From assembly GCA_963822405.1 (NCBI GenBank), contig CAWGHH010000001.1, positions 87,296 through 151,295 on the forward strand: DNA of 64,000 nucleotides, read 5' to 3'. Made by a program: the position numbers and the translations under genes. Positions 6,575-64,000 of this stretch are shown here, in pieces. Numbering within the stretch: the stretch's first letter is position 1; every line of letters starts with the position of its first letter. This DNA comes from Candidatus Uhrbacteria bacterium. GTDB lineage: Bacteria; Patescibacteriota; Patescibacteriia; UBA9934. Under the pieces are notes generated by a model. It saw only the letters and a program-made list of their open reading frames with translations. It was not told the DNA's origin and ran no database searches.

Positions 6575-6577
6575 TTT

Positions 6578-6835
6578 ATGGATTTGCAGCTTTCTCCTCG
6601 ATTTAAACGAGAAGCAAAAGGCCTCTCCGATCAGGTTTATGCGGAATTATCAGAGCGAGGTGATATTTTTCGAGCGAATCATTTTGATTCCAGACTCAAA
6701 ACACACAAGCTAAACGGTCCTTTGCGCGGATTTTGGGCATTTTCTGTAAATTATAGTGACAGAGTTATGTTCGAATTTTTGCCAAATGACGTTGTGCTTT
6801 TTCATTCTGTTGGCGATCATTCAATTTATGATTAA
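6578..6835 (+). CDS. RelE/ParE-family toxin-like protein
   Basis: ...GFWAFSVNYSDRVMFEFLPNDVVLFHSVGDH C-terminal signature; a paralog of 3433-3717. Confidence 0.45.
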   Translation: MDLQLSPRFKREAKGLSDQVYAELSERGDIFRANHFDSRLKTHKLNGPLRGFWAFSVNYSDRVMFEFLPNDVVLFHSVGDHSIYD

Positions 6836-7979: not shown

Positions 7980-8095
7980 TTGCATTAAGAAAAATCGTCT
8001 CTCCCGAAAGCTCAATAGCCCACGGGCGAGCCTCGCCTACGTTCGGGAACCAACACTTTCCATAAAAGTCTCATTTCTTGTATTATTCTCCCCGT

Positions 8096-8359
8096 ATGAA
8101 ACTTCGCATAGTCGTTGATCCGGATTTGTGTATTGGGGCTGCTAGTTGTGTCACGGTAGCTCCCGATTCATTTGTGATGAACCCTGAAAATAAAGCGGAA
8201 GTACTTGATAACGGTCGCTCACCAGAAGGCCCAAAGTACGAACGAACTGTTGAGATGACGGAGGAAGAGAAGGACAATTTGATCGTCGCTGCCCAGTCTT
8301 GTCCAACGCTCGCGATTTCTATATTCGATGAAGCGGGAACTTGTTTGTACCCAAACTAG
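8096..8359 (+). CDS. 4Fe-4S ferredoxin-like protein
   Basis: CIGAASC...C cluster motif in a small acidic protein. Confidence 0.55.
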   Translation: MKLRIVVDPDLCIGAASCVTVAPDSFVMNPENKAEVLDNGRSPEGPKYERTVEMTEEEKDNLIVAAQSCPTLAISIFDEAGTCLYPN

Positions 8360-8362
8360 TAC

Positions 8363-9538
8363 ATGCGCAACATTCTCATCATCGGTGGTGGAATAGCGGG
8401 CACAACGGCGGCGGATGAGATTCGCAATCGTGATAAAGAATGCTCGATAGTTATTCTGGAAGCGGAAATTCATCCGTTATATTCGCGCGTTCTCTTGCCC
8501 CACTACATAAAGGGTTTGGTGGGTCGGGAAAAAGTGTTTTTGAAACAGCCACAGTGGTATTACGACAATAATATCGAGATCATGCTTGGCGTGCGCGCCG
8601 AGGAGATCAATTTAAAGAACAATTTTGTACTGACTAGCGAAGGCCGAGAGCTGCCGTTCGACGAGCTACTCGTCACGACCGGAACGGAAATCGACCTGCT
8701 AAACGATGATCGTCGTGGTGTATCGTATCTAAATACGCTCGACGACGCTGATGCGTTAGTGGCAATGATCGGCGACCTCAAAACTCGACCAATTGCCGAG
8801 CAACACGCTTTTATTTACGGTGGTGGATTTATTGCGCTTGAGTACGCAAACATCTTTGCGCATCATGGCATTCCGTTTAGCATTGGTATGCGCGGTAAAG
8901 GTTTTTGGTCAAAGATTCTTTCGGCTGAGAGTCAAAAAGTACTTGCTGATCACGCCGGAAAGAATAAGGTGCCAATGTATTTGAACGAATCGTCTATTGA
9001 ATTACTCGGCGACGAAGAATTAATGGGTGTTCGTTTGGCCTCGGGCAAAGAAATTCCCTGCGGCATTCTTGGTGTTGGAATCGGCCACAGGGCAAACGAA
9101 AAAGTAGTCATTGATGCCGGCATTCCAACCAATCACGGCGTCATTGCTAACGAATATCTCGAAACTAGTGTTGAGCATGTGTATACTGCTGGTGATGCGG
9201 CTGAGTTTGACGACGTAAACGTGGGGCGACGCATTCGTTACGGCAACTGGACAAACGCTCTCATGCAGGGGCGAGCTGTCGGCAAGACTATGTGCGGCGA
9301 GCGTACCGCAACTAAGTTTGTCCCAGCGTTTTCAATCGGTTTGCTCGGTTTGCAAATCGTCTTTATTGGCGACACCAGCCGGGAGCATGCTGAGGAGGTT
9401 CGTCAAACCGCCTTAGCCGACGGAAAAGCTGAGGAGGTATATCTTCGAGGAGGAAAATTAGTCGGAGCAGTGTTAATTGGCGACTTAGCTCGCCGAGGAG
9501 CACTTACAAAGAATATTGGCCAAGCCTATGTTGCTTGA
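8363..9538 (+). CDS. FAD/NAD(P)-dependent pyridine-nucleotide-disulfide oxidoreductase (ferredoxin/rubredoxin-reductase-like)
   Basis: GGGIAG dinucleotide-binding motif at the N-terminus and a second Rossmann GGGFIALE; adjacent to the ferredoxin. Confidence 0.65.
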   Translation: MRNILIIGGGIAGTTAADEIRNRDKECSIVILEAEIHPLYSRVLLPHYIKGLVGREKVFLKQPQWYYDNNIEIMLGVRAEEINLKNNFVLTSEGRELPFDELLVTTGTEIDLLNDDRRGVSYLNTLDDADALVAMIGDLKTRPIAEQHAFIYGGGFIALEYANIFAHHGIPFSIGMRGKGFWSKILSAESQKVLADHAGKNKVPMYLNESSIELLGDEELMGVRLASGKEIPCGILGVGIGHRANEKVVIDAGIPTNHGVIANEYLETSVEHVYTAGDAAEFDDVNVGRRIRYGNWTNALMQGRAVGKTMCGERTATKFVPAFSIGLLGLQIVFIGDTSREHAEEVRQTALADGKAEEVYLRGGKLVGAVLIGDLARRGALTKNIGQAYVA

Positions 9539-10591
9539 TTCAGAAGAGATTTATAAGCAGTTTGACCCTGAAGATATTGGGTATGGTATTGAGCATTTGC
9601 CAGAGCAGGCAAACATCGCTTGGCACGGCACTCGCGATCTAAAATTTCCCAAAAATTATAGTGAAATTTCGAACATCGTTATTTCCGGCATGGGCGGTTC
9701 GGCCCTGGCCCACATGTTTTGAAAAGTGTGTTTGCTGATAGACTAAATGTTCCTTTTGAACTTGTTAGCGACTACACGCTGCCACATTACGCGAATAAAG
9801 ACTCGCTAGTTATTTTATCTAGTTATTCTGGAACAACTGAGGAAACATTAGCGATTGCCGAACAGGCAAAGGCTGCGAAAGCAAAGATTGCGGTGATTTG
9901 TGCTGGCGGTAAGCTCGCCGAACTAGCTGAGGCAGAAGGCTGGCCAATATATGTTTTCGAGCCTGGCGATTTGGCCAAGCAGCCACGATACGGAACAGGT
10001 TTTTCGCTCGTTGGCATCATGGGCATGCTCGAAAAAATGGGAGTTTTGAAAATCAAAGAAGCGGAAATTTTGTCCATGATGTCAGCGATGGGCGAGGTGA
10101 TTGATAATTGCGCTACTGACGTGCCTGCAAGTGAAAATCCGGCCAAAGAAGTTGCTACAGAAATTGTAAACCGTTCAATTGTCATCATTGCCGCTGAGCA
10201 TCTTTCGGGAAATGCGCATATATTGCAGAATCAAATGAATGAGTCTGCTAAGCAGTTTGCAACCTTTCAGTTATTGCCGGAACTTAACCACCACTTTTTG
10301 GAGGGCTTGTCCTTTCCAGTCGATCAAGCGGCAAACACGACCGCAATTTTGATTAGATCAAACCACTATCATCCTCGAACGCAAAAGCGTTGTGATATTA
10401 CGGCAGACATTCTCGAGAAAAAGGGGATTACAGTGATAGAATATGCCACAAAGGGCGAATCCAGACTTGATGAAGTAGGCGAAGTCCTCCAGTTTGGCAG
10501 CTATGTTGGTCTCTACCTCGCCTTATTGAATGGTGTAGTCACGACTGATACCGCAACTGTCTTCGAACTTAAGAAACGGATGAATGAATAG
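9516..10591 (+). pseudogene. Bifunctional phosphoglucose/phosphomannose isomerase (SIS domain) interrupted by a frameshift in a T4 run near 9717-9720
   Basis: GMGGSA...VSDYTLP...SYSGTTEET SIS motifs are split across two frames. Adding one T restores ...HMFLKSVFADR... Confidence 0.55.
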
Positions 10592-10594
10592 TTT

Positions 10595-11020
10595 ATGGCC
10601 CTATCTCATCTTGTGTGGAGCAGTGACCTAGAGATTGGTGTGCCGGAGCTTGATGAACAGCACAAGTATTTTTTTGATATAGCCAATAGGATCATTGATT
10701 TACAGGACAAGCTGAATGTCACAAAGGCCGAGATACTCGATGCTATTGGGAAATTAGGTGGTTATTCCATGGATCACTTCGCTACAGAGGAAACTATGTT
10801 GAACCAGTTGGGCGAACCAGCAGTTGAGGCTCATTTAGCAAAGCATGATAAATTTAGAAAAGAAATTAAAGAGTTTATTTTATCGATTGAAGCTTCAGAC
10901 GCCGATGACAAGCAAATTGCCAGCAAGGTAGCTGAGTTTGCCTGTAGCTATGTGAACCATCACATGCTGAACGCGAGAACGGAAAATATTCTGAAGCAAT
11001 TACGAGAATTAAAGAAATAA
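10595..11020 (+). CDS. Hemerythrin-like metal-binding protein
   Basis: W..DL.IGV.ELDEQHK motif. Confidence 0.6.
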   Translation: MALSHLVWSSDLEIGVPELDEQHKYFFDIANRIIDLQDKLNVTKAEILDAIGKLGGYSMDHFATEETMLNQLGEPAVEAHLAKHDKFRKEIKEFILSIEASDADDKQIASKVAEFACSYVNHHMLNARTENILKQLRELKK

Positions 11021-11026
11021 ACTATT

Positions 11027-11452
11027 ATGAAATTTCCCCGCTTTGTTTGGACTACTGATCTAGAAATTGGCATGCCTGAACTTGATGAACAGCACAAGTA
11101 TTTTTATGACATTGGCAACATGATTTTGGACCTTCAAGAGAAGCCAGATGTCACGAAGTCAGAAATGCTAACAGCTGTTGGCAAGATGGGTGATTATGCT
11201 TTTTATCACTTTGATACCGAGGAGGTCATGCTAAAACAGCTTAGTGGACCAGATGTTGAAGCTCACTTGGCGAAGCACGTGGCTTTTCGTAAGGAGATTA
11301 AAGATTTCATCGCCTCAATCGAAAGCAAGGACGCTGATGATAAGCAGATCGCCGACGAGGTTGCGGAATTCGCCCATACATACGTCACGAAGCACATGCT
11401 GAGCGCGAGCAAGGAGAATATCCTTAAACAGTTACAAGCGCTAAAGAAATAG
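11027..11452 (+). CDS. Hemerythrin-like metal-binding protein (tandem paralog)
   Basis: Same length as 10595-11020 and about 60% identical. Confidence 0.6.
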   Translation: MKFPRFVWTTDLEIGMPELDEQHKYFYDIGNMILDLQEKPDVTKSEMLTAVGKMGDYAFYHFDTEEVMLKQLSGPDVEAHLAKHVAFRKEIKDFIASIESKDADDKQIADEVAEFAHTYVTKHMLSASKENILKQLQALKK

Positions 11453-11472
11453 AAGAAAGTTACAAAAGAAAG

Positions 11473-11503
11473 ACCCCCGTCAGCCGATGCTGCGGGGGTT
11501 TTT
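11473..11503 (+). terminator. Hairpin CCCCCG...CGGGGG plus T5
   Basis: Read in sequence. Confidence 0.65.
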
Positions 11504-11522
11504 GCATGAGTACGCGCAGCTG

Positions 11523-12017
11523 TTACGCCGAGGCACTCATGCGAGAGCGGATCTCCATCAGGAGGACATCCGGCGCGATTGGCATGAAGATCATGCCGTT
11601 CCGCCTGAGCGAGGTGGTGGTTTTTGCATCCACCACCTGCATCTCTTTGTTGTTGATGACGTATGACGCGATGGTAGCCATGAAGACCGGATCAAGCGTT
11701 TCGCGGATGAGGCTGATGTCGGGCTCATCCGGTGGCAGACCGGAGAGTTTCTTCAACGCTGCGCCCGGGCGAACGATGATGAAGAGCTGATCAGGTCCGA
11801 TATCCCGATGGATCTTCCGGCAGTCGCGGACTGCGAGGTCGCTGTAGACCAACCGTTTACCACGTTCGTCATAGCAGGCGCACTGGCGCATGAACAGGTG
11901 CATCGAGTCCACCCTGCGGCCATTTGCCAGGCCATAGGGGATGTTCTCGGGTTTTGGGGTCTTAGGCATGGGGCCTCTGAAGGTGGGAGTAACAGGCACC
12001 TTGTCCGGGATGGACAA
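11523..12017 (-). CDS. Hypothetical protein
   Basis: 164-aa ORF. Confidence 0.4.
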   Translation of the reverse strand: MSIPDKVPVTPTFRGPMPKTPKPENIPYGLANGRRVDSMHLFMRQCACYDERGKRLVYSDLAVRDCRKIHRDIGPDQLFIIVRPGAALKKLSGLPPDEPDISLIRETLDPVFMATIASYVINNKEMQVVDAKTTTSLRRNGMIFMPIAPDVLLMEIRSRMSASA

Positions 12018-12121
12018 GATGGAAGGTTAGCGGAAATTTGAATTAATAGCAAGCTTAGTAACTTGGAGCATAGCTTGTCAGTATTATAAAAAAACGTTAC
12101 TCTGCTTCTGTTTTAGACCAT

Positions 12122-12212
12122 GGAAGGGTCGCATAGTTGGTCTAGTGCGCGGCACTCGAAATGCCGTGTACCCGTAAGGGTACCGCGAGTTCGAATCTCG
12201 CCCCTTCCGCCA
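12122..12212 (+). tRNA. tRNA-Ser (anticodon CGA), with a long variable arm and encoded CCA
   Basis: Acceptor GGAAGGG/CCCTTCC; anticodon stem CGGCA/TGCCG with loop CTCGAAA; T-arm GCGAGTTCGAATCTCGC. Confidence 0.8.
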
Positions 12213-12214
12213 CA

Positions 12215-12243
12215 AAAATACAACCGCGAGGTTGTATTTTTGT
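12215..12243 (+). terminator. Hairpin ACAACC-GCGA-GGTTGT plus T5
   Basis: Read in sequence. Confidence 0.6.
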
Positions 12244-12271
12244 GTCCAAGGTTGATACACTCGAAACATCT

Positions 12272-23932: not shown

Positions 23933-23980
23933 TTGTCTCATGTCTCCGTCCGCATCTTCCACGGAAGGTGCGGGCACGAT

Positions 23981-24370
23981 ATGCGAAAACTGGCAGCCGC
24001 TGGGCTAATGTCACTATCACTCTTGTTGCCGCTAAGTGCCGGCGCCGCTTTTAATGCGGGAGATTCTGGTTTGAATAAGACTGCTGAAGGTGCTTTTGGC
24101 GCTGGCTACACGGGCTCAAGAGGTAATATCGGAACTTTCGTTGGAACGTATATCATTAAGCCAGTTCTCGGCCTGCTTGGTTTAGTTTTCTTGATGCTCA
24201 TGGTTTACGCTGGCGGCATGTGGATGACGGCCATGGGAAATGAAAAACGCGTAGCAAAAGCAAAAGAGATTATGATTGCTGCGGTGATTGGGTCAGTAAT
24301 CATTGTAGCCGCATACACACTAACTAACGCGTTGTTCTCGGCTTTGAGTACAGGAACTCCAACCGGCTAG
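23981..24370 (+). CDS. T4SS-pilin-like protein (paralog 5)
   Basis: Core LGLLGLVFLMLMVYAGGMWMTAMGNEKRVAKAK. Confidence 0.55.
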   Translation: MRKLAAAGLMSLSLLLPLSAGAAFNAGDSGLNKTAEGAFGAGYTGSRGNIGTFVGTYIIKPVLGLLGLVFLMLMVYAGGMWMTAMGNEKRVAKAKEIMIAAVIGSVIIVAAYTLTNALFSALSTGTPTG

Positions 24371-24381
24371 TTAGGATTTTT

Positions 24382-24708
24382 ATGTCTACACTTTTGGCGA
24401 TTAACACTACCACAGGATTATCCGACGCCGGTCAAGGCGCCGGTTATTCTTTAACTCAAACTCCAGCAGAACTTTTGGGTTTTGGCATCCAACTAGTTAT
24501 TGGTCTTTTGGGGGTCGTTTTTTTGATCCTCGTTCTCTACGCTGGATTCACTTGGATGACTTCAATGGGGAACGAAAAAACAGTGGGAAAAGCTAAGGAT
24601 ATATTAGTTCGAGCCACTGTTGGATTAGTGATTATGATTTCGGCTTATGCTATTTCTTCCTATGTCATTGGCGCATTAGATGTGGCAGTGAACGGACCAG
24701 GTGCATAG
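24382..24708 (+). CDS. T4SS-pilin-like protein (paralog 6), apparently without an N-terminal signal peptide
   Basis: Core LVIGLLGVVFLILVLYAGFTWMTSMGNEKTVGKAK. A stop codon lies immediately upstream of the ATG. Confidence 0.5.
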   Translation: MSTLLAINTTTGLSDAGQGAGYSLTQTPAELLGFGIQLVIGLLGVVFLILVLYAGFTWMTSMGNEKTVGKAKDILVRATVGLVIMISAYAISSYVIGALDVAVNGPGA

Positions 24709-24778
24709 ACTGTCCACATCATTTAGTTAAGCTAGGAATTAATAGGTGTATAATTTCTGTAACATTCATTAATTTATT

Positions 24779-25174
24779 ATGAACAAGCTAAAGAAACTTC
24801 TCATTGGTGCGGCGTTGGTAGTAGTGCCATTCTCAACTGCAGTCATGAACGTTAGCGCTCAGACTAGCAAGATTGGCGATAGCTTGGGACAAGTCGGGAA
24901 TGCGGCTCAATTGGGTGGTGGCGGTGAAGACCAGTTGGTTAATACGGTTGGTAGCTTGATTACTACATTCCTTGGAATTTTAGGTATTGTTTTCTTGGTT
25001 CTTGTTCTCTACGCCGGATTCACTTGGATGACAGCTATGGGTGAAGAGAAGAAAATTGCATCTGCTAAGAATATTCTCATCTCTGCTGTTGTTGGTCTTG
25101 TGGTTATCATGTCGGCTTATGCGATTAGTAGTTTCGTGATCGCTCAATTGCAACATGCCACAACAGGAGTCTAG
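24779..25174 (+). CDS. T4SS-pilin-like protein (paralog 7)
   Basis: Core FLGILGIVFLVLVLYAGFTWMTAMGEEKKIASAK. Confidence 0.55.
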   Translation: MNKLKKLLIGAALVVVPFSTAVMNVSAQTSKIGDSLGQVGNAAQLGGGGEDQLVNTVGSLITTFLGILGIVFLVLVLYAGFTWMTAMGEEKKIASAKNILISAVVGLVVIMSAYAISSFVIAQLQHATTGV

Positions 25175-54678: not shown

Positions 54679-54703
54679 CGACTCGAAGAGTCGGGGGGGG
54701 GGG
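54679..54703 (+). promoter_or_regulatory. Module copy 3: hairpin CGACTC-GAA-GAGTCG followed by a G11 homopolymer and an AT-rich promoter-like sequence
   Basis: G-run at 54693-54703, read in sequence. Confidence 0.45.
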
Positions 54704-54736
54704 TAATATAGGAGAAAAGTTACTAACATATTTAAT

Positions 54737-55375
54737 ATGGGCGTTGAGAAAGAAGATAAAGATCCCAATGCTAGGCATTGGATAGCATCGAGAAAGCCTG
54801 AGCCGACAATTGAAAGTACGCAAGAATATGCTAAAGAGAAACCTGTAATTGAAAGCAGGCTGGGTAGTCTCTATAAACCAACAGCTGCTGAGGAAACTGA
54901 GCGTAAATTACATCCTGAATTACATGAGGAGGGTGGTTTAGACGCAGTTAAAAAGAGGATCGCGAATTTGAAGAAAGGTCACGGTAAATTGATAATTCCT
55001 CCCGGGTACATTACTGACAGAGAGATGGAATCAAATAGAGTTTTAGGCGAGCGTTATCAAGAATCATCAAATGAAATTAAAAGATTAGAAGGAATAATAC
55101 GGGATTCCGAATTGAACGATGAGAATGAAGCAAATAGTTTGCGTGTGGCTGAAGTAGAGAGAATCAAGGAGTCCGCGGATCTTTCAGCAAGAAATAAAAG
55201 GGATAGCGCAATGTTAGACGAACGAAAACAAAAAGCTGAGAAAGAGCATTGGGCCGAATATCAAAGACGACTTTACGAGGCGCAGATAAAACTTCAAACG
55301 GCGTGGTTTTGGCAACGCGCTGGTCTTCAGAAGACAATTGATTTCTATGAGGCAGAATTTAAGAACAGGAAATAA
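54737..55375 (+). CDS. Highly charged coiled-coil protein, paralog A (conserved AWFWQR C-terminal motif)
   Basis: 212-aa ORF; a paralog of 55493-56218. Confidence 0.45.
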   Translation: MGVEKEDKDPNARHWIASRKPEPTIESTQEYAKEKPVIESRLGSLYKPTAAEETERKLHPELHEEGGLDAVKKRIANLKKGHGKLIIPPGYITDREMESNRVLGERYQESSNEIKRLEGIIRDSELNDENEANSLRVAEVERIKESADLSARNKRDSAMLDERKQKAEKEHWAEYQRRLYEAQIKLQTAWFWQRAGLQKTIDFYEAEFKNRK

Positions 55376-55434
55376 TCTTTACATTTTGATTAAGAAGTAG
55401 TCAAAAAATGATTGTATTGATTTTTTAAGCAAAG

Positions 55435-55459
55435 CCCGATTCGAAAGAGTCGGGGGGGG
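55435..55459 (+). promoter_or_regulatory. Module copy 4: hairpin CCGATTCGAAAGAGTCGG followed by a G8 homopolymer
   Basis: Read in sequence. Confidence 0.45.
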
Positions 55460-55492
55460 TAAAATTAGAACAAAGTCACGAACATAATTAAT

Positions 55493-56218
55493 ATGGCCGT
55501 TGAGAAAGAAGGAGGAGACCCGAAGGCTAAAGATTGGAAGGCGCCGGAAAAAGCGCCGAAAAAATACGATGAGATTAAACGCATTGAAGACTCTATAGCG
55601 TCCATGAGGAAGGGTTACGGCGGTAAGAAGGAAGACGATCCAAAAATATCTGAATTTGAAAAGATGCTCGTTAGGGCAAAAGAAAGAAAGGCGCAAGATG
55701 ATGCTTGGCTTGAGCAGTCCCCCGAACTTCGGGCTGTGGGTGGTTTAAAAGCAGCTAACGAAAAACTTACGAAGTTAAGGGAAGAGATGAATAAAATGTC
55801 AAAAATACTTAGTATATCTCCTCATCCTGATTTTATTGAAGCGGGCGTGTACGAGCGTAGTGATGGTCAGAAAAGAGCATCGGAACGATACGATATAATG
55901 AATACTGAAGTACGAAGGTTGGAAGGGATAATTAAGGGTCAAGAATCGTATACGTTTGATGAAGAGAAAAAGAAGAAAACGTTAGAGGTGCAACAGGAGG
56001 AAGATAGAGGGCGTGAACTTAAAAAGGAATGGAAGGAGCTGCAAAAAAGAAGGGATGATGCTAAGGATAAACTTGATCAGGCTTGGTTTTGGCAACGCCG
56101 CGCAATACAAGAAGAGATCGAGTCTATAGATACAGAATTAGAAAATTTGAGAAAACGAATAGAGAAGGAGGATAAAATAAGGAAAGAAAGAGTAGACAAA
56201 GCAATTTACGGTAAGTAG
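55493..56218 (+). CDS. Highly charged coiled-coil protein, paralog B
   Basis: Shares the N-terminus M(G/A)VEKE..DP.A..W, a central ...RRLEGII..., and the C-terminal AWFWQR. Confidence 0.45.
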   Translation: MAVEKEGGDPKAKDWKAPEKAPKKYDEIKRIEDSIASMRKGYGGKKEDDPKISEFEKMLVRAKERKAQDDAWLEQSPELRAVGGLKAANEKLTKLREEMNKMSKILSISPHPDFIEAGVYERSDGQKRASERYDIMNTEVRRLEGIIKGQESYTFDEEKKKKTLEVQQEEDRGRELKKEWKELQKRRDDAKDKLDQAWFWQRRAIQEEIESIDTELENLRKRIEKEDKIRKERVDKAIYGK

Positions 56219-56396
56219 TTCTAAATAATCCAACAATTACCCGGCCCCATAAAGGTTGGGTATTTGTTATACTCGACGAAACATAAATTCTATGGACAAT
56301 TTGCCAGGTGAAGGTCGGGGTTTTTGTTTTCGAGCAAAATAAGTCCCCCGCACCAAGATGGTCGGGGGATTTGGCGTGCGGCGAGGTGGACGCGAG

Positions 56397-56874
56397 TCAT
56401 GAGGGGCTGTACGTGAGGAAGGCGCGGACCAGGGAATCAATCCAGACGAGAGCGCGTTTGTTGTCTGGAGAGTTGAGATTGGGACGGTAGTGAATGTCAT
56501 TTTTGTCCCAGCCTTGAAGCTTCGAGAGAGCGCTGACGATGCGGACTTCGGTGTCATTTTCCGCGTCATCCCTGAGGAGCCTGTCTGTACCAGTGAGCAA
56601 TGCCATCGAGGTTGAGTTCGTAGCAGATATTGAAGAGGCGATCCGTGTTGCTATCTTCGTTCCGGGAGAGGCAGACCTCTATCTCTGGAAGGCCTGTCGA
56701 TGTATCAACGCTATCCCCCCATGAGAGACGCAGGTTATTCTGGCTCGTACTCCAGATCATTCCGCCAGCGCGGGATTCACAGAGGATTATTTTTCCGATA
56801 CAGGCTTTGTCGATTGGAATCTTGACTAGGTTTCTTATCCTTCGAACGTGCGTTACGACTTCCAGCTTATTCAT
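56397..56874 (-). pseudogene. Hypothetical protein (paralog of 56978-57436), apparently frameshifted near 56600
   Basis: Two overlapping ORFs. The C-terminal ALVWIDSLVRAFLTYSP matches AFEWIDAMLRSFLNYEP of the neighbour. Confidence 0.35.
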
Positions 56875-56977
56875 TGGAATATCCTCCCGGCTCAATTTAC
56901 CCTAAATAAACAAAGAGCGCATCCGGAAGGCATGGCCAGCCGGATGGCTGTGGCTCTTTGCCCCGCGGATGCGCGAG

Positions 56978-57436
56978 TTAGGCGGTGACTGGCTCGTAGT
57001 TCAGGAACGAGCGCAGCATGGCGTCAATCCATTCGAACGCCTGGGCGTCGGAAGTTGCGATGGTCGGGCCGGGTTCCCAGGCTTTCAGCTCGGGGAGACG
57101 CGCGAGAAGATCCTTCAGATCTTCATCTTGTTCGTTCTCCGGTTCGGGCCCTTGTTGCGACCAGACCATGCCATGCGACCCGTCTTCGGAGTAGCTGACG
57201 GTCACGATCCAGAATTGCTGATTCCATTCGGCGACTTCGATCATCAGCGCCTGGATGGAATCTTTCTCTGCCGAGAGAAACCAACGAATGCACAGGCCGT
57301 TCTTGGAGATCTCCCAACCCTTGCCGTGCCCGTCTTCGAACGGGGTAATCAACGGCACCTTCTTTCCCGCGTTAATTACGCGGTCTCGCAGTTGATCAGT
57401 CACGTCCAGAATCTGTTCGTTAAACGGTTGAACCAT
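56978..57436 (-). CDS. Hypothetical protein (paralog family)
   Basis: GGGAGGG RBS 7 nt upstream of the ATG at 57436. Confidence 0.4.
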   Translation of the reverse strand: MVQPFNEQILDVTDQLRDRVINAGKKVPLITPFEDGHGKGWEISKNGLCIRWFLSAEKDSIQALMIEVAEWNQQFWIVTVSYSEDGSHGMVWSQQGPEPENEQDEDLKDLLARLPELKAWEPGPTIATSDAQAFEWIDAMLRSFLNYEPVTA

Positions 57437-57596
57437 GTTTGTTACCCTCCCAAGCATGCCGGAACCCCCGGCGGATTGCTGTCTTTCGACCAAAGATATT
57501 GCCATAAATGAGTAGGAAAGTCCAGTTTGGGCTGTTATGGACTTTAAAACTTTACGTCTTTACAACTTTATAACTTCCCCTCATACTGTCACCAAT

Positions 57597-58373
57597 ATGA
57601 ATGACACCAAAGTGGTGATTCTGGCGGCGGGGAAGGGAAAGCGCATGGGCGCTAATGTTCCGAAACCCCTTGTGAAGATAGCGGGAAAGGCCATGATTTC
57701 GCATTTACTGGAAAGGGTGCGGGCGTCTGGGCTCGACCAAAAGCCAGTTGTCATAGTTTCTGTTGACGGAAAAGCTGATTTTGAAGCCGAACTTGGCGAT
57801 TCTGTAGATTTTGCGGTACAAGTTGAACAAAATGGGACGGGCGATGCTTTGCGGTATGCCGAGGAAGCTTGCAAGGGCGCATCGAGAATCATTGTTCTAT
57901 ACGGCGATCATCCATTTATTAGTGCGGACGTTTTGAAGCAACTCGCCGATCTATCTTCGAAGAATCATGGAGATATCGCTATGTTGACGGCGACCGTGCC
58001 AAACTTTGAAGGAGATTTTGGGATGTTTGTGAAGTGGGGGAAAATCATTCGTGAAAATTCGGCGAAGGGGCATGGCGGCGCCATGCCCGTACAAGCGTTG
58101 CGCGAGGTTAAGGATTGCTCGCCGGAAGAGCTGGCGATCACAGAAGTAAATCCAGGGATTTATGCTTTTCCGGTTCCTTGGGTATTCGACAGATTGAAAG
58201 ATGTGAAGAACGAGAATGCCAGCGGTGAATATTATTTGACGGACTTGATTGGGCTTGCTATGCAAGAAGGAAGAAAGATTGTGACTGCGTCAGTAGATCC
58301 TTTGCAGGTTGTTGGGATCAATACGCCTGATGAGCTCATCAAAGCTGAAGAGCTGTTAACTAAATATATATGA
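57597..58373 (+). CDS. Sugar-phosphate nucleotidyltransferase resembling the GlmU N-terminal uridylyltransferase domain
   Basis: VVILAAGKGKRMGANVPKPLVKIAGKAMISHLLERV nucleotidyltransferase signature; no LbH acetyltransferase domain. Confidence 0.55.
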   Translation: MNDTKVVILAAGKGKRMGANVPKPLVKIAGKAMISHLLERVRASGLDQKPVVIVSVDGKADFEAELGDSVDFAVQVEQNGTGDALRYAEEACKGASRIIVLYGDHPFISADVLKQLADLSSKNHGDIAMLTATVPNFEGDFGMFVKWGKIIRENSAKGHGGAMPVQALREVKDCSPEELAITEVNPGIYAFPVPWVFDRLKDVKNENASGEYYLTDLIGLAMQEGRKIVTASVDPLQVVGINTPDELIKAEELLTKYI

Positions 58374-59125
58374 GCACCATAAGACCCGCGGAGGACGTGC
58401 TTGAGAAGCTCGGGCTATCGCCCAAAGAAACGCGCGTGTACATCACCCTTTTGAAGGAGGGGCCGTCCAGCGTTCGCCAAATGGCAGCGGCTACGGGCAT
58501 CAATCGGGGGACGGTTTATGATTCGCTCAAGAACCTGCAAGTCATGGGACTTGCTCGTTTTTATAATAAGGAGACAAAACAGTATTTTGTAGCTGCACCG
58601 CCGGTGAAACTTGAGGAACTCGCCCAAGAGAAGATGGATGATTTGAAGCGCGCAAACGAGAAATTGTCGCACGTAATTGCCGAGCTCGACAGCGTATATG
58701 ACGGGGGAGGAACGGATCCGGTTGCGCGGATGTACGAGGGTCCAGAAGGAATTAAAGTGATTTTGCAGGATGTTTTGGCGAGTATGGAGGCAGCCAAGGA
58801 GAAAGAATATTACGTGTATTCGTCGAGTGCCGTGCGCGAGGCTGGTTTGTACTCGGCATTTTCCACATACACCGCAGAACGACTCGACGCGCGGATTCGG
58901 GTGAAGAACATTTCGCTTGGCAAGGGCGGATCTACGGCTGGACTAGACGAACGTAAATGGATTCCCGCTACGGAAGGCTCGCCAACATATATTTTGATTT
59001 ACGCCGGAAAAGTGGCGAACATTTTCTTAGACAAAAAGGGCGAGCTGGTTGGTTTGATCATTGAAAATAAGGGCATTTATCAAACTCAGAAGATTTTGTT
59101 CGCGTCACTTTGGGAGAGGTTGTAG
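58370..59125 (+). CDS. TrmB-family HTH transcriptional regulator (second copy)
   Basis: LGLSPKETRVYITLLKEGPSSVRQMAAATGINRGTVYDSLKNL. Confidence 0.6.
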   Translation: MSTIRPAEDVLEKLGLSPKETRVYITLLKEGPSSVRQMAAATGINRGTVYDSLKNLQVMGLARFYNKETKQYFVAAPPVKLEELAQEKMDDLKRANEKLSHVIAELDSVYDGGGTDPVARMYEGPEGIKVILQDVLASMEAAKEKEYYVYSSSAVREAGLYSAFSTYTAERLDARIRVKNISLGKGGSTAGLDERKWIPATEGSPTYILIYAGKVANIFLDKKGELVGLIIENKGIYQTQKILFASLWERL

Positions 59126-59781
59126 AATGGGCGAGTATGATCGACGTTGCCACGGTGCAATCATTTTTCATTGATAGCCTTAAATCAGCGCGTGAAGACG
59201 TTGAATTATTTGCGTTAGATTTCTTCAAACTAGTTAGGGCTTTGGGGGTGTGGGCGGTGCCGTTCGTATTGTCGATTATTGCTATCGCTGCGCTTCCTGC
59301 GGTGTTTGCGACGCACATTGGCAAGCTGACCGATGCAATTATCGGTGCTCGAGGTGTGGGAACAATGACGATCGATGTGACGCGCGCGATTCGAATTCTT
59401 ACTGGTGCAACGATCGTTGGTTTTCTTGCTGAAATGTTTTTGAGCAGGTTTGAAGGGAAGGCGGGGGTCATGGCGAGTACGGCGTACGGCCTTGGTGTTC
59501 TCGTTGTTCTGGCGATAATGCTCGGGAATCTAGGGTGGTACGGTGTCGCCCTTTGGCCGATTGTTTTGCTTGTCACTCGAACTATTTTGAAGAAAATTCC
59601 GTATCTGCAGTTTGTTTTCGTGATTCCTGTTGTTCTGTTATTTTTGTCATGTGCGACGAATGTGATTCAGTACGCGACGATCCGTGCGATCACTGTCGGT
59701 GCGGCTATGTCGACGGTAGCGGCGGCGGGGATGTATGCGGTGGTGGTGGCGGTGGTGATGTTGAAACGTGATTCAGCCTGA
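59110..59781 (+). CDS. Integral membrane protein, function unknown
   Basis: About 6 TM helices. Confidence 0.4.
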   Translation: MGEVVEWASMIDVATVQSFFIDSLKSAREDVELFALDFFKLVRALGVWAVPFVLSIIAIAALPAVFATHIGKLTDAIIGARGVGTMTIDVTRAIRILTGATIVGFLAEMFLSRFEGKAGVMASTAYGLGVLVVLAIMLGNLGWYGVALWPIVLLVTRTILKKIPYLQFVFVIPVVLLFLSCATNVIQYATIRAITVGAAMSTVAAAGMYAVVVAVVMLKRDSA

Positions 59782-59874
59782 ACCACCGAGGCCCTTCGGG
59801 GCAGACCAACCACCTCCCCCTACCCCCTCCTTAGAAAGGAGGGGAGGCGAACCATCCTGACCATTAAATACCGT

Positions 59875-60282
59875 ATGCCCAACCATCTCATCGCCGACAT
59901 CCCCGTGAAGGCTCTCATTCGTAAAGACGATAAAATTTTGTTGATCCAGCAGGCGGATGGCAAGGAAGACTGGTGCTTACCGGGTGGTCGTCTGAATAAT
60001 GGTGAACAGCCGAGAGAAGGTTTGCGTCGCGAGATATTGGAAGAAATCGGCGCCGAGATTGAGATCGGTAGGCTCGTCGACTGTACAGTTTTCACGAGTA
60101 AATCCGGCATGAACCATTTTGTGGTAGTTTTCGAGGCGACTCTCGTCGGTAATAGCCAACCAAAGCCGGACGGTGTAGAAATCAAAGATGTTAAATGGGT
60201 TACGCTCGAGGAGGCGTTGAAGATGGAGTTGAGAAGTGAATATCGGGTAATTCTCGAAGGACTCGCCGCCAGGATCAAATAA
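59875..60282 (+). CDS. NUDIX hydrolase
   Basis: Nudix box GGRLNNGEQPREGLRREILEEIG. Confidence 0.7.
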   Translation: MPNHLIADIPVKALIRKDDKILLIQQADGKEDWCLPGGRLNNGEQPREGLRREILEEIGAEIEIGRLVDCTVFTSKSGMNHFVVVFEATLVGNSQPKPDGVEIKDVKWVTLEEALKMELRSEYRVILEGLAARIK

Positions 60283-60322
60283 CACCACCTCTAGGCCCCT
60301 CCTAACGTCGGGGACCAATGCT

Positions 60323-61564
60323 ATGAAAATAATCGCCGATCTACATGTTCACTCCCGTTTTTCGCGTGCATGTTCGCAGGATTTAACACTCGAAAATAAC
60401 GCGTTGTGGTGCGAGAAGAAGGGGGTGAATGTTTTGGGGACGGGGGATTTTACGCATCCACTTTGGTTCAAAGAAATAGAAGAGAAACTCGTCGAAGCCG
60501 AGTCAGGACTCTACAAGTTGAAGAGTGGAGAGTTTTCGAAAATGCGGTTCATGATGACGACCGAAGTCTCGCAGATCTATAAGAGGGGAGGAAAAGTACG
60601 ACGCGTGCACAATTTAATTTTTGCACCAAACATTGAGTGCGTGAAAAAAATAAATGCGTGGCTCGACGAACATAAATTTAATCGGCGGAATGATGGTCGG
60701 CCAATTTTAGGAATTGATTCGGAAGATTTATATCGCGAACTAAAAAACCTCGACGATAAAATTATTCTTGTACCGGCGCACGCGTGGACACCGTGGTATT
60801 CGGTATTTGGTTCGAAGAGCGGGTTTGATTCGCTCGAAGAATGTTTTGGTGAGATGACGAAAGAAATTTTTGCGATCGAGACGGGATTGTCGAGCGACCC
60901 CGCGATGAATCGAACACTTAGTGTACTCGACGACATTTCTTTGATCTCAAACTCTGATGCGCACTCGCCTAAAAACTTTGGAAGAGAAGCGAATGTCTTT
61001 GAAATTGATGAAAAGAAATTATCTTACGATGAAATTATTCGCACGATTCGTGAGCGAGATATTGCACACTTTTTGTATACGATCGAGTTTTATCCGGGGG
61101 AGGGAAAGTACTATGCGGATGGGCATGCACCCTGTGGGCTGACCTTTGAGACTAAGGAGACTTTGAGACTGGGAGGGAGATGCCCGAAATGCGGAGGACC
61201 AATAACGGTGGGGGTTTTGTCGAGAGTTGAGGAGTTGGGGGATCGCCCCACTTTCGACCCCCTCTATCCCCCTAGAAGGGGGAAGGAGCAATCCATTCCA
61301 TTCAAATCCATTGTGCCACTGCCGGAAATACTTGCGCAGTGTTTGGGGGTGTCGAGTGTGTCGTCGAAGAAGGTGATGACGTTGTACGAGGAGATGATAA
61401 AAACATTAGGCAGCGAGTTTAATATTTTATTAGAAGTTTCTGTTTTAGAAATTCGTTCGCAGTTTGGTAACACTGTCGCTGAAGCGATTGCACGAGTGCG
61501 CGCGGGAAAAGTTTCCGTTACTCCTGGTTATGACGGAATATTTGGTGTAGTAAAAATATTTTAA
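60323..61564 (+). CDS. PHP-domain protein of the endonuclease Q / TIGR00375-like family, with a C-terminal CxxC zinc ribbon
   Basis: N-terminus ADLHVHSRFSRACS...LGTGDFTHPLW; CPKCGG. Contains an in-frame hairpin CCCCCTAGAAGGGGG encoding PPRRG. Confidence 0.5.
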   Translation: MKIIADLHVHSRFSRACSQDLTLENNALWCEKKGVNVLGTGDFTHPLWFKEIEEKLVEAESGLYKLKSGEFSKMRFMMTTEVSQIYKRGGKVRRVHNLIFAPNIECVKKINAWLDEHKFNRRNDGRPILGIDSEDLYRELKNLDDKIILVPAHAWTPWYSVFGSKSGFDSLEECFGEMTKEIFAIETGLSSDPAMNRTLSVLDDISLISNSDAHSPKNFGREANVFEIDEKKLSYDEIIRTIRERDIAHFLYTIEFYPGEGKYYADGHAPCGLTFETKETLRLGGRCPKCGGPITVGVLSRVEELGDRPTFDPLYPPRRGKEQSIPFKSIVPLPEILAQCLGVSSVSSKKVMTLYEEMIKTLGSEFNILLEVSVLEIRSQFGNTVAEAIARVRAGKVSVTPGYDGIFGVVKIF

Positions 61565-61577
61565 TTTTTAAACTTTT

Positions 61578-61618
61578 TTCCCGGCAAAGCCGGGCTCGGC
61601 TACGCCGGAAACTTTTTT
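61578..61618 (+). terminator. Hairpin CCCGGCAAAGCCGGG and a second small hairpin, followed by T6
   Basis: Read in sequence. Confidence 0.4.
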
Positions 61619-61732
61619 ACAGCTAAAGTTGTGCACAGCTTGTGTGAATAAAAATGGATGTGTGTTGAAAACTCGATATACTAGTAGCAAGTCAAGCATT
61701 ACTTGACCCGAAGATTTTTAACTCTACGTATA

Positions 61733-61839
61733 TGGCAGTCGCAAAAAAGGCGAAGAAGCCAGCTAAGAAGGTAGCAGCAAAGCGCAAGCCAGCCGCACGC
61801 AAGCCAGCTAAGAAGGCAGCAGCTAAGAAGCGCCGCTAG
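61733..61839 (+). CDS. 35-aa lysine/alanine-rich histone-H1-like basic protein (KKPAKK repeats); absent from the ORF track
   Basis: ATG GCA GTC GCA AAA AAG ... AAG CGC CGC TAG. A TTGACC -35-like element and inverted repeat GTCAAG/CTTGAC lie upstream; a terminator lies downstream. Confidence 0.4.
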
Positions 61840-61881
61840 TTTCTCAGACGAGCATGTCCTTGGAGGAGATGCTGGTCAAAC

Positions 61882-61909
61882 AAAAAATTCCCGTGAGGGA
61901 ATTTTTTTA
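61882..61909 (+). terminator. Hairpin AATTCCC-GTGA-GGGAATT plus T7
   Basis: Read in sequence. Confidence 0.6.
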
Positions 61910-61911
61910 TT

Positions 61912-62030
61912 GTCCTCATCTGATCACTCAAGGGAGAGAGTCCTTAAGTGATCGGATGAGGGGACGACGGCTGTGCAAGCGCATCGTCCACGAGTCACTT
62001 TGCTGTTCTGGCACAGAAAGTGAGAAATAT
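61912..62030. repeat. Structured repeat R1 (three consecutive stem-loops; lacks the 45-nt prefix)
   Basis: About 90% identical to 63890-63999. Confidence 0.7.
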
Positions 62031-62036
62031 GCCGGA

Positions 62037-62333
62037 TCAGTGGCGCTTGATCCAGCCACCGTTATTCGTGCGGTGTCCCTCTGCGTGGATCTTTTTGATT
62101 TCATCCCACAAAGTGGCGCGAGCCGTCTTGGGCGTCATGTCAGCCGGAGCGGCCAGCAGGACGAAGTCGTAGACGGCCTTCCTGTGACAATCGCCACAGT
62201 AGCCGTCATCCCAGCAACAGCACGGGCCTCGCCCGTGGTCCAGGCTCCGGGACTCGGCCCGGCCAGGGTGAAGCCCCGGGCGAGCAACTGCTCGCGAACA
62301 AGGTTCGAGCGCGTTTTGATGATGGGCATGTGC
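62037..62333 (-). CDS. Hypothetical Cys/Gly-rich protein, possibly frameshifted (G+C-rich region)
   Basis: ATG with GGAGGG lies inside the repeat prefix. Two overlapping - strand frames are both protein-like. Confidence 0.3.
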   Translation of the reverse strand, partial: AHAHHQNALEPCSRAVARPGLHPGRAESRSLDHGRGPCCCWDDGYCGDCHRKAVYDFVLLAAPADMTPKTARATLWDEIKKIHAEGHRTNNGGWIKRH

Positions 62334-62335
62334 CC

Positions 62336-62440
62336 TCCAATCGAGCAACGCGATCGCGCATGAGCTGCGCAGTGATCGGTCCTCATCTGATCACTCAAGG
62401 GAGAGAGTCCTTAAGTGATCGGATAAGGAGAGAGCTCAAC
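62336..62440. repeat. Structured repeat R2 (45-nt prefix containing CGCGATCGCG, then the first stem-loop, then diverged)
   Basis: Prefix identical to 63847-63890. Confidence 0.7.
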
Positions 62441-62543
62441 CGCGCGTGTATGGCGGGAGCTCTCTACTGAGTGCTAAGATTTCTGTTTCTACTTGGAACT
62501 TCACCGCGCGAATCTGAGAGCGCGGATAATGAACAACGAATCG

Positions 62544-63089
62544 CTACTTGCGGTAGCCACCAGCGAACCCGAGGGCCGGGTCGCCGTACAGATCGGTGAG
62601 TCCCTGGCTCGCCGCCCAACCGCCGAGGAATGCCTCGATCGGGGCGCGGCCGGGCGCCGTCCCATCTCCGGCTCCACCAAGAATGATCTTCCGGCGCGGG
62701 TCCTCGGGTGTTTCCGGGATTTCGGCCAGGTAGGCCACGCCAATGCGGTGGGCCGCCTCGGACAGTTCCGGGATGCTGTTACCCGGGACAACGGCGGGTA
62801 CGATGATGCACCGCCCGGCTCCGGTTGGGGTGGTGTGGTATCCGTCCTCACACGTGGCGCACCCGGCCGCCACGTGGTTTAGGCGCGCGCCAGTCCGCAG
62901 GTCGGCGACCTGGATGGGCGCCACCTCTCCATGGATGAATCCATGACTTTCGTCGTGGATTCCCTCCATGAACCAGTCAGGCCGCTCGCCCGACCGGTAA
63001 CCGTCGTTGCCCTCTCGCAGGGTGATCCGCGGAGCCGCCGCGATCGCGCAGACCGCGGTTATTATAAGGTGTTCCGTTTCTTCGGACAT
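62544..63089 (-). CDS. Hypothetical protein
   Basis: Strong RBS GGAGGTAA before the ATG at 63089. Confidence 0.4.
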   Translation of the reverse strand: MSEETEHLIITAVCAIAAAPRITLREGNDGYRSGERPDWFMEGIHDESHGFIHGEVAPIQVADLRTGARLNHVAAGCATCEDGYHTTPTGAGRCIIVPAVVPGNSIPELSEAAHRIGVAYLAEIPETPEDPRRKIILGGAGDGTAPGRAPIEAFLGGWAASQGLTDLYGDPALGFAGGYRK

Positions 63090-63299
63090 TTTACCTCCAA
63101 TGCGCCAAAGACGCGGGTTGTCGAAGCAGTTTCCGCTTCGACATAATCTGTCATTCATGATGAAAGATTGTGTCGAAGGGCGAGGAAGAGAGCGTGCGTT
63201 TGCTCCATCCTCCTCGCCATTACGAATGCAGTGTCAAAGAACAATCCACCATTTCTTTTTATGGAAGAAACGGTGACAAAGAAACCGACGCAGGCTATG

Positions 63300-63838
63300 T
63301 TAACGGAAAAGCTTTTCGAGTTCCTCCGTTTGATAGCGGGTGAGGGGCCCGATGATGGACATGGATACATCCATTCCCTCCACGTCCATTCCCTCGACCA
63401 CGTCCCAGAGAGTGATGAGCCCCCAGCAGACGGCCCCCTGCCCGTAGGTGAAGGGGGTGCCGGGTACGGCGATTTCTTCCATCATTCCTATTTTGCAGAG
63501 TGTGGGGAATACCACCACTCCATACAACGAGCTCAGGGAGAACCAGTCTCCCGTCCATCCTTCCTGGGCCTCGTCCGTGGCAACTAGGAGAGCCTCACGG
63601 CTCCCGTCCGGCCGGGTGTAGACCCAGAGGGCCACCCCCGCTCCGCAACCCCGGGGGCGGGTTTCATCCGTGATCCCGAGGTGGGCCAGATGGCCCGCTT
63701 TCCGGTTTCCGAGTAGTGCAGGATTTCCTCCCGCATTCCCAGGAGTAGGTGTGGAGCCACCTCTCGAATTTTTTCTTCGAGGTCATAGACCCAGAAGAGC
63801 TTCCCATCCAAATTTTTATTCAAGTAGACATGGGCCAT
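63300..63838 (-). pseudogene. Hypothetical protein, apparently frameshifted near 63590-63635
   Basis: The ATG at 63838 with GGAGG lies at the edge of the repeat prefix; two overlapping ORFs. Confidence 0.3.
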
Positions 63839-63846
63839 GGCGGCCT

Positions 63847-64000
63847 CCAATCGAGCAACGCGATCGCGCATGAGCTGCGCAGTGATCGGTCCTCATCTGA
63901 TCACTCCAACGAGAGAGTGTTGAAGTGATCGGATGAAGAGGACGACGGCTGTGCAAGCGCATCGTCCACGAGTCACTTTGCTTTTCAGGCGAAAGAAAGT
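63847..64000. repeat. Structured repeat R3 (prefix plus three stem-loops), running to the window end
   Basis: Matches R2 (prefix) and R1 (stem-loops). Confidence 0.7.

Follow-up and report, generated by a model that had tools for sequence, protein, structure and literature searches.

How do bacteria with tiny genomes acquire genes? In Patescibacteria the routes are poorly understood, and a locus at the end of the stretch analyzed here bears on the question. This stretch, hereafter the window, comprises 64,000 nt of a Candidatus Uhrbacteria genome (assembly GCA_963822405.1, contig CAWGHH010000001.1, positions 87,296 to 151,295), and its last 2.1 kb carry a structured repeat in three copies (R1 to R3) among small genes. 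A reading made from the nucleotide sequence alone (the sequence-only reading) had described a repeat of about 150 nt, composed of three hairpins and a prefix. On our best reading, the end of the window lies within a hypervariable, G+C-rich island of gene cassettes in the chromosome of this member of the Patescibacteria (candidate phyla radiation, CPR). At one chromosomal position, foreign genes of unknown function (65-70% G+C) come and go, together with toxin-antitoxin modules, as hairpin-bounded units, with no integrase visible, and this may be a CPR route of gene capture. One part of the repeat is a hairpin, here named H1, whose structure is under selection. We tentatively hold as the most probable interpretation that H1 is a cassette-boundary hairpin, a joint acting at the DNA level that would be a functional analogue of the attC sites of integrons and not a member of that family.

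Structure and covariation of the H1 hairpin

H1 is a hairpin of 50-64 nt whose 8-nt loop never varies (ACTCTCTC on the gene strand, which is the - strand of the window and carries the array features given below unless stated otherwise). The basal stem of 7-9 bp (mostly 7-8) is followed by a conserved mismatch between C in the 5' arm and A in the 3' arm, and then by an upper stem of 12-19 bp that is free in sequence and length and unrelated among the types when they are aligned from the base. The height of the C·A mismatch above the base is nearly constant in all five stem types. In an alignment of eight sequences representing these five types, 90.5% of the cells are paired, and 18 of the 21 pairs have changes on both sides. 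The covariation score is 0.59, compared with 0.20 in shuffled alignments (0 of 500 reach 0.59) and about 0.1 with slid partners. The subtype H1b differs from H1a by an inner stem altered in both arms (AAGG/CCTT to CAAC/GTTG), with the loop unchanged. Imperfections on the gene strand are symmetric (12 G·U versus 12 A·C), and no extrahelical bases were seen. Because the stem covaries, the loop is invariant and the mismatch keeps a near-constant height, we conclude that the structure of H1 is under selection.

Nine copies are present: three in the window strain (W), four in its closest relative in the collections (S, JBAZWW010000002.1; loci L001, L005, L086 and L087), one in a 2.2-kb fragment of another such island (L004) and one in an additional contig (L085). 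All lie on the gene strand and are intergenic. The copy in R1 (H1a, 61913-61962) is the terminal hairpin of the island. It scores 73.4 bits with our covariance model, has its mismatch 7 bp above the base and is identical at 50 of 50 positions to L086 11648-11697. The folded copy in R2 (H1a, 62380-62429) scores 73.9 bits, and that in R3 (H1b, 63890-63939), which is supported by covariation and has a counterpart of the same subtype at L086 9900-9949, scores 70.1 bits. Applied to the window and 82 loci (1.28 Mb), the covariance model found no further copy, and both the remaining 62 kb of the window and the host sequence of L086 are free of H1. On its 5' side H1 always adjoins another hairpin, H2 or X, whose sequence varies, with a gap of 0-2 nt (nine of nine copies), and the terminal copies also meet the hairpin of the host terminator at their opposite end. 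H1a is 98-100% identical across four sources, and the adjoining genes have synonymous divergences (Ks) of about 1-2.

Neither H1 nor the other modules of the repeat could be matched to an RNA family or a recombination site already described. Rfam models at the gathering threshold had no match in the window and related loci, and in E-value mode the best scores (19-33 bits, far below gathering) came from eukaryotic snoRNA and miRNA models; the element was thus not recognized as a known family, and the Rfam identification by which the sequence-only reading would have been refuted did not come about. The exact H1 pattern occurs in a single metagenome contig. Searches with the exact H1, prefix and H2/H3 patterns in viral contigs and with the exact prefix pattern in genome contigs found nothing, and neither did a distant-mode blastn search with the 2.1-kb array or a tblastn search with the 507-aa island protein of S, both against phages and plasmids.

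Modular composition and authenticity of the repeat

The three copies differ in extent. R1 (61912-62030) has no prefix, R2 (62334-62430) consists of prefix and H1 only, followed by a different hairpin, and R3 (63844-64000) reaches the end of the window. R1 and R3 are 89.3% identical over 112 nt (62021-61912 versus 64000-63889), R2 and R3 including H1 are 93% identical over 91 nt, and the prefixes of R2 and R3 are identical at 46 of 46 positions. RNA of the - strand reproduces the three-hairpin fold, with folding z-scores of -5.8 to -8.7, and the G+C content of the terminal region is 0.56-0.62, compared with about 0.47 across the rest of the window. All the features that the sequence-only reading described are present in the sequence. 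It was right that the repeat is structured and recurs, and the recurrence is far beyond chance (2-5 occurrences in the window for each of the prefix, the arm motif of H1 and the H2/H3 block, against 0.00 expected from 100 shuffles). The idea of a single 150-nt unit in three copies does not hold, as no two full copies exist and the unit is a composite. The HIP1-like palindrome GCGATCGC, to which that reading drew attention, is not over-represented (3 copies versus 1.54 expected; 18 of 100 shuffles reach 3), and its resemblance to HIP1 is therefore a coincidence of one repeated element. Clustered regularly interspaced short palindromic repeats (CRISPR) were also considered and rejected; the copies are spaced by 467 and 1510 nt with protein-coding genes inside, in place of a regular spacing of about 60-70 bp.

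The repeat is composed of three modules that assort independently: a hairpin pair (H3/H2), H1 and a leader (prefix1). In gene orientation, the window array reads [H3, H2, H1b, prefix1], gene C, [H3-like hairpin, type-2 hairpins, prefix2], gene B, [hairpin, X, H1a, prefix1], gene A, [H3, H2, H1a] and then the host terminator. H3-H2 is followed by H1a, H1b or a longer type (H1long), and the element ahead of prefix1 is H1a, H1b, H1long or a type-2 hairpin. Ahead of gene B stands a type-2 junction in the window and an H1 in L004, and both prefix1 and H1 flank unrelated genes.

H3 (61996-62022, supported by its fold) directly follows the stop codon of gene A, and H2 (61962-61989), in the X position adjoining H1, completes the 3' flank of this gene. 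H2 has an exact second copy in R3 (63940-63967) and also lies 3' of gene A' in L086, while the R3 copy of H3 (63974-64000) is cut by the window end at its last coordinate. H3-like hairpins trail genes of the gene A and gene C types in L004 and L086, and H3 plus H2 trail gene-A-type genes in W, S and L004. H3/H2 is the 3' flank of the Cys-rich gene A family. Since H3-H2 always lies 3' of such genes, a further gene A paralogue is implied just past 64000. The hairpins had been thought to open each transcription unit. This view fails on two counts: H3 and H2 belong to the gene upstream, and H1 also closes the island, where R1 and the terminal copy of the sister island have no island gene downstream.

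Prefix1 is a 46-nt leader (62334-62379 in R2; 63844-63889 in R3) with an internal GCGCA-loop-TGCGC hairpin and a ribosome-binding site (RBS) at its end, TTGGAGG, 4-6 nt ahead of the ATG of genes A and C, as had been noticed from the reverse complement. Its five copies precede genes A, C, A' and C' and a truncated remnant; three of them are in L086 and L004. The proposal of a portable 5' leader is therefore well founded, being conserved, RBS-bearing and present before other genes in two related islands. That of a portable promoter is unsupported, rather than excluded, because our scan, which predicted no sigma-70 promoter on the gene strand of the window array, covers the sigma-70-type consensus only. 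An upstream open reading frame (ORF) starting at an AUG inside prefix1 was rejected: it varies in frame and length, and no Shine-Dalgarno-like sequence lies closer than about 20 nt.

Contigs assembled independently (Logan) from another run with the same strain show the repeat in the same arrangement. L002 matches window 54693-61941 at 99.97% and spans the junction between host DNA and H1 of R1, L003 matches 63890-62395, a segment with genes C and B that is bounded by the H1 copies of R3 and R2, and L085 carries a further cassette that likewise ends in H1. All three contigs terminate within H1, as expected because H1 is a genuine multi-copy repeat. Since these assemblies reproduce the junctions, the repeat is not an assembly artifact, and the chimeric junction or collapsed repeat that the sequence-only reading had feared is refuted.

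Insertion site and the islands of related strains

The island starts exactly at the foot of a host terminator, a bidirectional palindrome of 16-19 bp with T/A runs (61874-61915, no strand assigned) that was recognized as an inverted repeat and is also present in L005/L086 and L006. It is the terminator of a lysine-rich gene, a 35-aa Lys/Ala-rich ORF (61732-61839) with a composition like that of the protein histone H1; this gene is conserved among relatives and marks where the island was inserted. In S, whose host DNA is about 78% identical to that of W (79% for the flanking endonuclease-like protein), an island of different content lies at the identical chromosomal nucleotide after the same terminator. 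The gene order at the host junction is C-B-A/host in W and ...A'-VapBC-125aa-TM100/host in S, where TM100 is a 100-aa membrane protein. Both islands end in H1 and meet the same host base, with unrelated stems (H1a versus H1'). A third relative (L006; flanking protein 79%) has an empty site at 5040-5075, at which the terminator is directly followed by a convergent 442-aa host gene and a tRNA. The boundary of the island is therefore fixed to the base of the terminator hairpin.

The island of S is complete (L086, about 1950-12260, 10.3 kb). It lies inside contigs of 197 kb and 257 kb produced by two assemblers, which are identical over the 20.3 kb compared, and it is therefore real and not chimeric. 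At its head (L086 2145-3030) is a strong sigma-70 promoter (TTGACA-17-TACGAT with an extended -10 TG, 10 of 12 matches), the best of L086, followed by an 855-nt leader that has no ORF longer than 51 aa and folds at -335 kcal/mol, versus -255 kcal/mol in shuffles (z = -10.6). The loops of its predicted hairpins (GAGAGAG three times, AAGAGAG once) are the complement of the H1 loop. The leader, as modeled, may be a new large structured RNA. A group II intron or another known large non-coding RNA was considered for it, and no Rfam model matched. The co-oriented genes of the island, at 65-70% G+C, encode proteins of 161 aa and 329 aa, a DEAH/HA2 helicase, a 507-aa protein, A', a 125-aa protein and TM100, whose cassette has its own predicted promoter. 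They are interrupted by low-G+C modules on the opposite strand, namely two VapBC pairs and a repeat protein.

Is H1 a joint in DNA or a signal in RNA?

In the reading that we favor, a factor encoded in trans would recognize H1 in its folded single-stranded form, and H1 would serve as the joint for gain, loss and reshuffling of cassettes, each made of leader, gene, hairpin X and H1. Promoterless cassettes would be read through from an upstream promoter, and prefix1 would act as their portable translation-initiation leader. The recombinase would be encoded elsewhere in the genome. We base this reading on the fact that both islands end at the same host nucleotide with unrelated H1 stems, on their differing content and the empty site of L006 at this position, on the free combination of the modules, on the near identity of H1a (98-100%) while the adjacent genes are saturated at synonymous sites, on the restriction of nine copies to islands and to one strand, and on an organization that parallels chromosomal integrons. 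The symmetry of G·U and A·C imperfections also suggests a palindrome of DNA, unlike an RNA helix under selection. Furthermore, the prefix1-gene A-H3-H2-H1 cassette is adjacent to the host in W, and three more cassettes follow it in S, which is the order that insertion or deletion of leader-gene-X-H1 units at the foot of H1 would give.

Several points weigh against this reading. The conserved part of H1 is its apical loop, the opposite of attC, and RNA hairpins that are read by a protein or by another RNA are classically marked by just such a combination of covarying stem and unchanging loop. The promoter-proximal half of the S island lacks H1, and the H1 type does not co-segregate with either flank, which gene conversion or MITE-like insertion (MITE, miniature inverted-repeat transposable element) would explain equally well. 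No excision or circle junction was observed. Domains of integrases, transposases, HUH proteins and recombinases were not seen in the 10.3-kb S island and its flanks, on which the integrase test rests since the head of the window array lies beyond 64000, and no recombinase appears among the best 25 of 47 Pfam families matched by 65 window ORFs. Canonical attC sites were rejected as well: a pattern search and folding of window 61850-64000 on both strands revealed no RYYYAAC/GTTRRRY cores, and the single core hit in L086 lies inside a coding region. Finally, only three or four independent sequences exist.

A function in RNA is the main rival and a substantial possibility. The island would then be transcribed as a long polycistronic RNA in which X plus H1 form intercistronic or 3'-untranslated hairpins, acting as RNase-III-like processing sites, as stabilizers of 3' ends or as binding sites for a regulator that reads the ACUCUCUC loop, while prefix1 and prefix2 would be shared translation-initiation regions and the mosaicism a side effect of gene conversion or homologous recombination among the repeats. 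The sense orientation and strictly intergenic position of all nine copies fit this reading, and an invariant loop on a covarying stem of 20-28 bp is typical of RNA operators. Intercistronic signals are plausible in a window array with no predicted promoter, prefix1 bears an RBS, the terminal H1 lies in a 3' untranslated region just upstream of a canonical bidirectional terminator, and the S leader has loops (GAGAGAG three times, AAGAGAG once) complementary to that of H1. However, the sense strand has as many A·C as G·U imperfections (12 each), and the conserved imperfection is a C·A mismatch rather than a wobble. Structural constraint alone is insufficient for 98-100% identity of H1a stems beside genes with saturated Ks, and the fusion of H1 to the same host base in both islands is left unexplained. 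There is no Rfam match, and a riboswitch-like pairing of the H1 3' arm with the head of prefix1, which we rejected as a candidate, is not conserved in H1long or L004. The DNA-joint and RNA-element readings are not mutually exclusive; what we infer is the molecule recognized and its recognizer.

Two further explanations seem to us much less probable. A miniature mobile element is distinctly unlikely: H1 would be a non-autonomous palindrome like those of the REP/REPIN or PATE types, inserted by a trans-acting single-strand transposase at the foot of existing hairpins, with the rest of the repeat being paralogous flanks. It would account for the independence of H1 as a module, which has breakpoints at either end, for the position of H1 0-2 nt from the foot of another hairpin, including the host terminator, and for the uniform orientation and the symmetric G·T and A·C imperfections, which fit single-stranded-DNA mechanisms. 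Against it, the copies are confined to islands (62 kb of host DNA, the host portion of L086 and 80 other loci with a total of 1.28 Mb contain none), target-site duplications and a conserved 5' tetranucleotide such as GTAG are absent, and five stem subtypes sharing one loop point to structural selection and not to recent copying. No Y1/HUH gene was seen; the gene A model is weakly ferredoxin-like, and its match to ISDra2 TnpA (E = 1.7) is not significant. The MITE of the sequence-only reading thus lacks both duplicated flanks and dispersal; H1 is palindromic, but every copy is within an island. That the repeat has no function, being a by-product of tandem duplication of paralogues with their flanks, an assembly artifact or a chimera, is highly improbable and largely refuted. 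A gene A paralogue is present in the same genome (P0004), H3-H2 travels with gene-A-type genes, the window has two 1-nt frameshifts and contigs break at H1, all of which such an origin could produce. It does not account for the compensatory covariation, the invariant loop, the conserved mismatch or the presence of prefix1 and H1 beside unrelated genes, and it conflicts with the independent assemblies, which reproduce the host/H1 junction and the R3-C-B-R2 segment, and with the 100% identity of the S island between two assemblers (contigs of about 200-257 kb).

The DNA joint has a bolder version. Beyond being a structured cassette-boundary repeat, H1 has a modest chance, in our estimate, of belonging to a categorically new capture system that is independent of an integrase. 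The H1 copies would then be the attachment sites of an undescribed CPR gene-capture system without an integron integrase, and its platform would be the structured non-coding RNA of about 1 kb at the island head, whose GAGAGAG loops would pair with the CUCUCUC loops of H1. Cassette boundaries would be recognized in an RNA-guided or RNA-scaffolded manner. We regard this extension as unlikely.

Genes and other junction elements

Gene A (62037-62329) encodes a small Cys-rich protein (CCCWDDGYCGDCH... HRTNNGGW) that was read by three-frame translation. In the window it is frameshifted by a 1-nt deletion relative to the intact homologues P0003 (98 aa) and P0004 (96 aa), the latter encoded in the same genome. 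An AlphaFold2 model shows a ferredoxin-like fold that bears a Cys-rich loop, and a Foldseek search of the PDB gave no significant match. The gene A family has a ratio of nonsynonymous to synonymous divergence (Ka/Ks) of 0.12. Gene B (62544-63089, start at 63089; RBS GGAGG) is intact and encodes 181 aa. It has homologues with 100% (P0001) and 64% (P0002) identity and a Ka/Ks of 0.31. Its family comprises 387 representative proteins at E<=1e-3, which mostly match residues ~100-180. The members are mostly 300-400 aa long, with the matching domain at the C-terminus and N-terminal halves that share LGAPDPE...VDHHRPGDPG motifs. Neither gene B nor 10 scanned homologues have a Pfam match. Gene B is thus a C-terminal half of an unannotated protein family that stands alone.

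Gene C (63300-63838; 179 aa when intact) has a 1-nt deletion at 63688 in the window. L003, from the same strain, has one extra base there and an intact gene, and the window frameshift is therefore an error or a polymorphism. The frameshifts that the sequence-only reading saw correspond to these 1-nt deletions in genes A and C, and that of gene C is missing in L003. A 97-aa relative of gene C stands behind prefix1 in L004 (Ka/Ks 0.34), and a homology search with the intact protein found nothing. Pfam, PADLOC and PHROGs gave no assignment for the cassette proteins, and for the island proteins in general only DEAH/HA2 helicase, PIN domain and generic helicase matches. With Ka/Ks values of 0.12-0.34 at Ks of about 1-2, the cassette genes are under purifying selection.

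Other elements occupy the junctions. X, the variable G+C-rich hairpin on the 5' side of H1 in gene orientation, is at 62430-62464 and was identified by its fold. The tips of H2 and X often have a GCAC/CACA-type motif, such as CACGCACACAGCG in both L004 and L085; the sites are window 61962-61989 and 62430-62464, L086 9862-9899 and 11612-11646, L004 1412-1447 and L085 855-895. H2 and X may, very tentatively, constitute a second class of hairpins with conserved loops. An identity as intrinsic terminators was rejected, as H1, H2 and X were not called by a terminator scan and no T-run follows them. The hairpin after the stop codon of gene B (CCGCGC...GCGCGG, 62502-62525) recurs in L004 (window 62527-62498 versus L004 101-131, 90%). 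The junction between genes C and B (63094-63276) consists of a second leader type, prefix2 (CCGCGTCTTTGGCGCATTGGAGG on the gene strand, 63094-63116), type-2 hairpins in place of X and H1 (63117-63218, sharing pieces with L004 182-211 and 937-983) and an H3-like hairpin after the gene C stop codon (63246-63276, related to L004 57-78 and 1343-1367). Prefix2 is common to gene B and the 329-aa gene of S (window 63116-63089 versus L086 4231-4258, 89%). Module pieces of this junction recur in L004, L085 and L086. With a module set of its own at this junction, the island has several families of junction hairpins, not H1 alone.

The L004 fragment contains the 3' end of a gene-A-like gene, a VapBC pair, prefix1 with the gene C relative, X plus H1 and the gene B homologue. 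The VapBC modules (PIN toxin and antitoxin; L086 5464-5930 and 10536-11121, L004 265-860) have a host-like G+C content and the opposite orientation. They are about 80% identical between islands, and one such module cuts short an ORF whose start lies behind a copy of prefix1. The low-G+C repeat protein of S (L086 3653-4078, - strand) is a 141-aa ORF with 27-nt (9-aa) tandem repeats of the type FATKDDLKN, with weak PHROG matches to families of unknown function. Two TrmB-family genes, one at the far edge of the island and one on its host side, have upstream regions that duplicate each other (L086 1959-2029 versus L001 5395-5491; 100% over 35 and 29 nt), a hint of segmental duplication around the island. 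The sequence-only reading had likened the array to a second G+C-rich stretch at 25-29 kb of the window. That stretch is indeed G+C-rich (0.57-0.62) and encodes a 771-aa membrane protein, but it has no module copy. Around it (about 21.9-29.5 kb), six ORFs match Pfam T4SS_pilin, and three similar small membrane ORFs lie at 23933-25174.

Comparison with known systems

The H1 motif is sharply defined and can be searched for and tested under either interpretation. If H1 is a recombination joint, it would be a second, independent solution to the cassette-array problem that integrons solve; if it is an RNA signal, it would represent a new hairpin class with loop-specific recognition, together with a new large structured leader RNA. 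Short repeated hairpins and shuffled gene modules are known from several settings with which the island can be compared.

REP and BIME sequences, REPINs and IS200/IS605-derived elements (REP, repetitive extragenic palindrome) are distributed genome-wide in tens to hundreds of copies, with a conserved 5' tetranucleotide and a Y1/HUH gene; REP-type hairpins are recognized with a mismatch or bulge and can stabilize the mRNA upstream. H1 resembles them as a short imperfect palindrome in 3' intergenic regions that can form a single-strand hairpin. Unlike the REP/REPIN-RAYT systems, it is restricted to islands in the loci compared here (no copy in the 62 kb of host sequence of the window), has a single orientation and no conserved flanking tetranucleotide such as GTAG, and is accompanied by no Y1/HUH gene that we could see. 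Phage RNA hairpins, such as the RNase III sites of T7, boxB/nut of lambda and the coat-protein operators, have about two helical turns, internal mismatches and loop-specific recognition, and the start-associated sequences of mycobacteriophages are conserved RBS-containing blocks before several unrelated genes. The island has both a repeated intergenic hairpin, likewise of about two turns and with an internal mismatch, and an RBS-bearing prefix block before several unrelated genes. Unlike these phage signals, however, it has no phage genes (PHROGs gave a generic helicase only) and no similarity to phage or plasmid records, and H1 forms the junction between island and host, which is not required of an RNA signal. 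The pdif (XerC/D) modules of Acinetobacter plasmids are gene modules, including toxin-antitoxin pairs, that are shuffled by a recombinase encoded elsewhere, and their sites are 28-bp duplexes (11-6-11) in alternating orientation. Small gene modules that include toxin-antitoxin pairs and are bounded by short elements are common to both systems, whereas H1 is a 50-64-nt hairpin in a single orientation.

Among the systems compared, the integron cassette array with its attC sites would be the closest functional analogue of the H1 array. As in integrons, small co-oriented and mostly promoterless genes of unknown function and deviant G+C content are lined up behind a single promoter at the head, which is seen in the S island, and the cassette content differs at the same chromosomal site between related species. 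The resemblance of H1 to attC is partial: it provides one strand-specific imperfect hairpin at the 3' boundary of each cassette, with a conserved basal stem and a fixed unpaired position, the C·A mismatch, followed by a stem variable in sequence and length, but its loop is invariant and it shows no extrahelical bases. In chromosomal integrons, toxin-antitoxin cassettes with their own promoter or expression signals are interspersed in the array (PMC13108822), as are the VapBC modules in the S island. Nevertheless, there is no IntI or tyrosine recombinase beside the array of S, the RYYYAAC/GTTRRRY cores are missing and the apical loop is invariant, whereas that of attC is variable. Nor is a given type of H1 tied to the gene upstream of it; the genes nearest the promoter have no H1, and the platform is a structured non-coding region of 1 kb in place of intI-attI.

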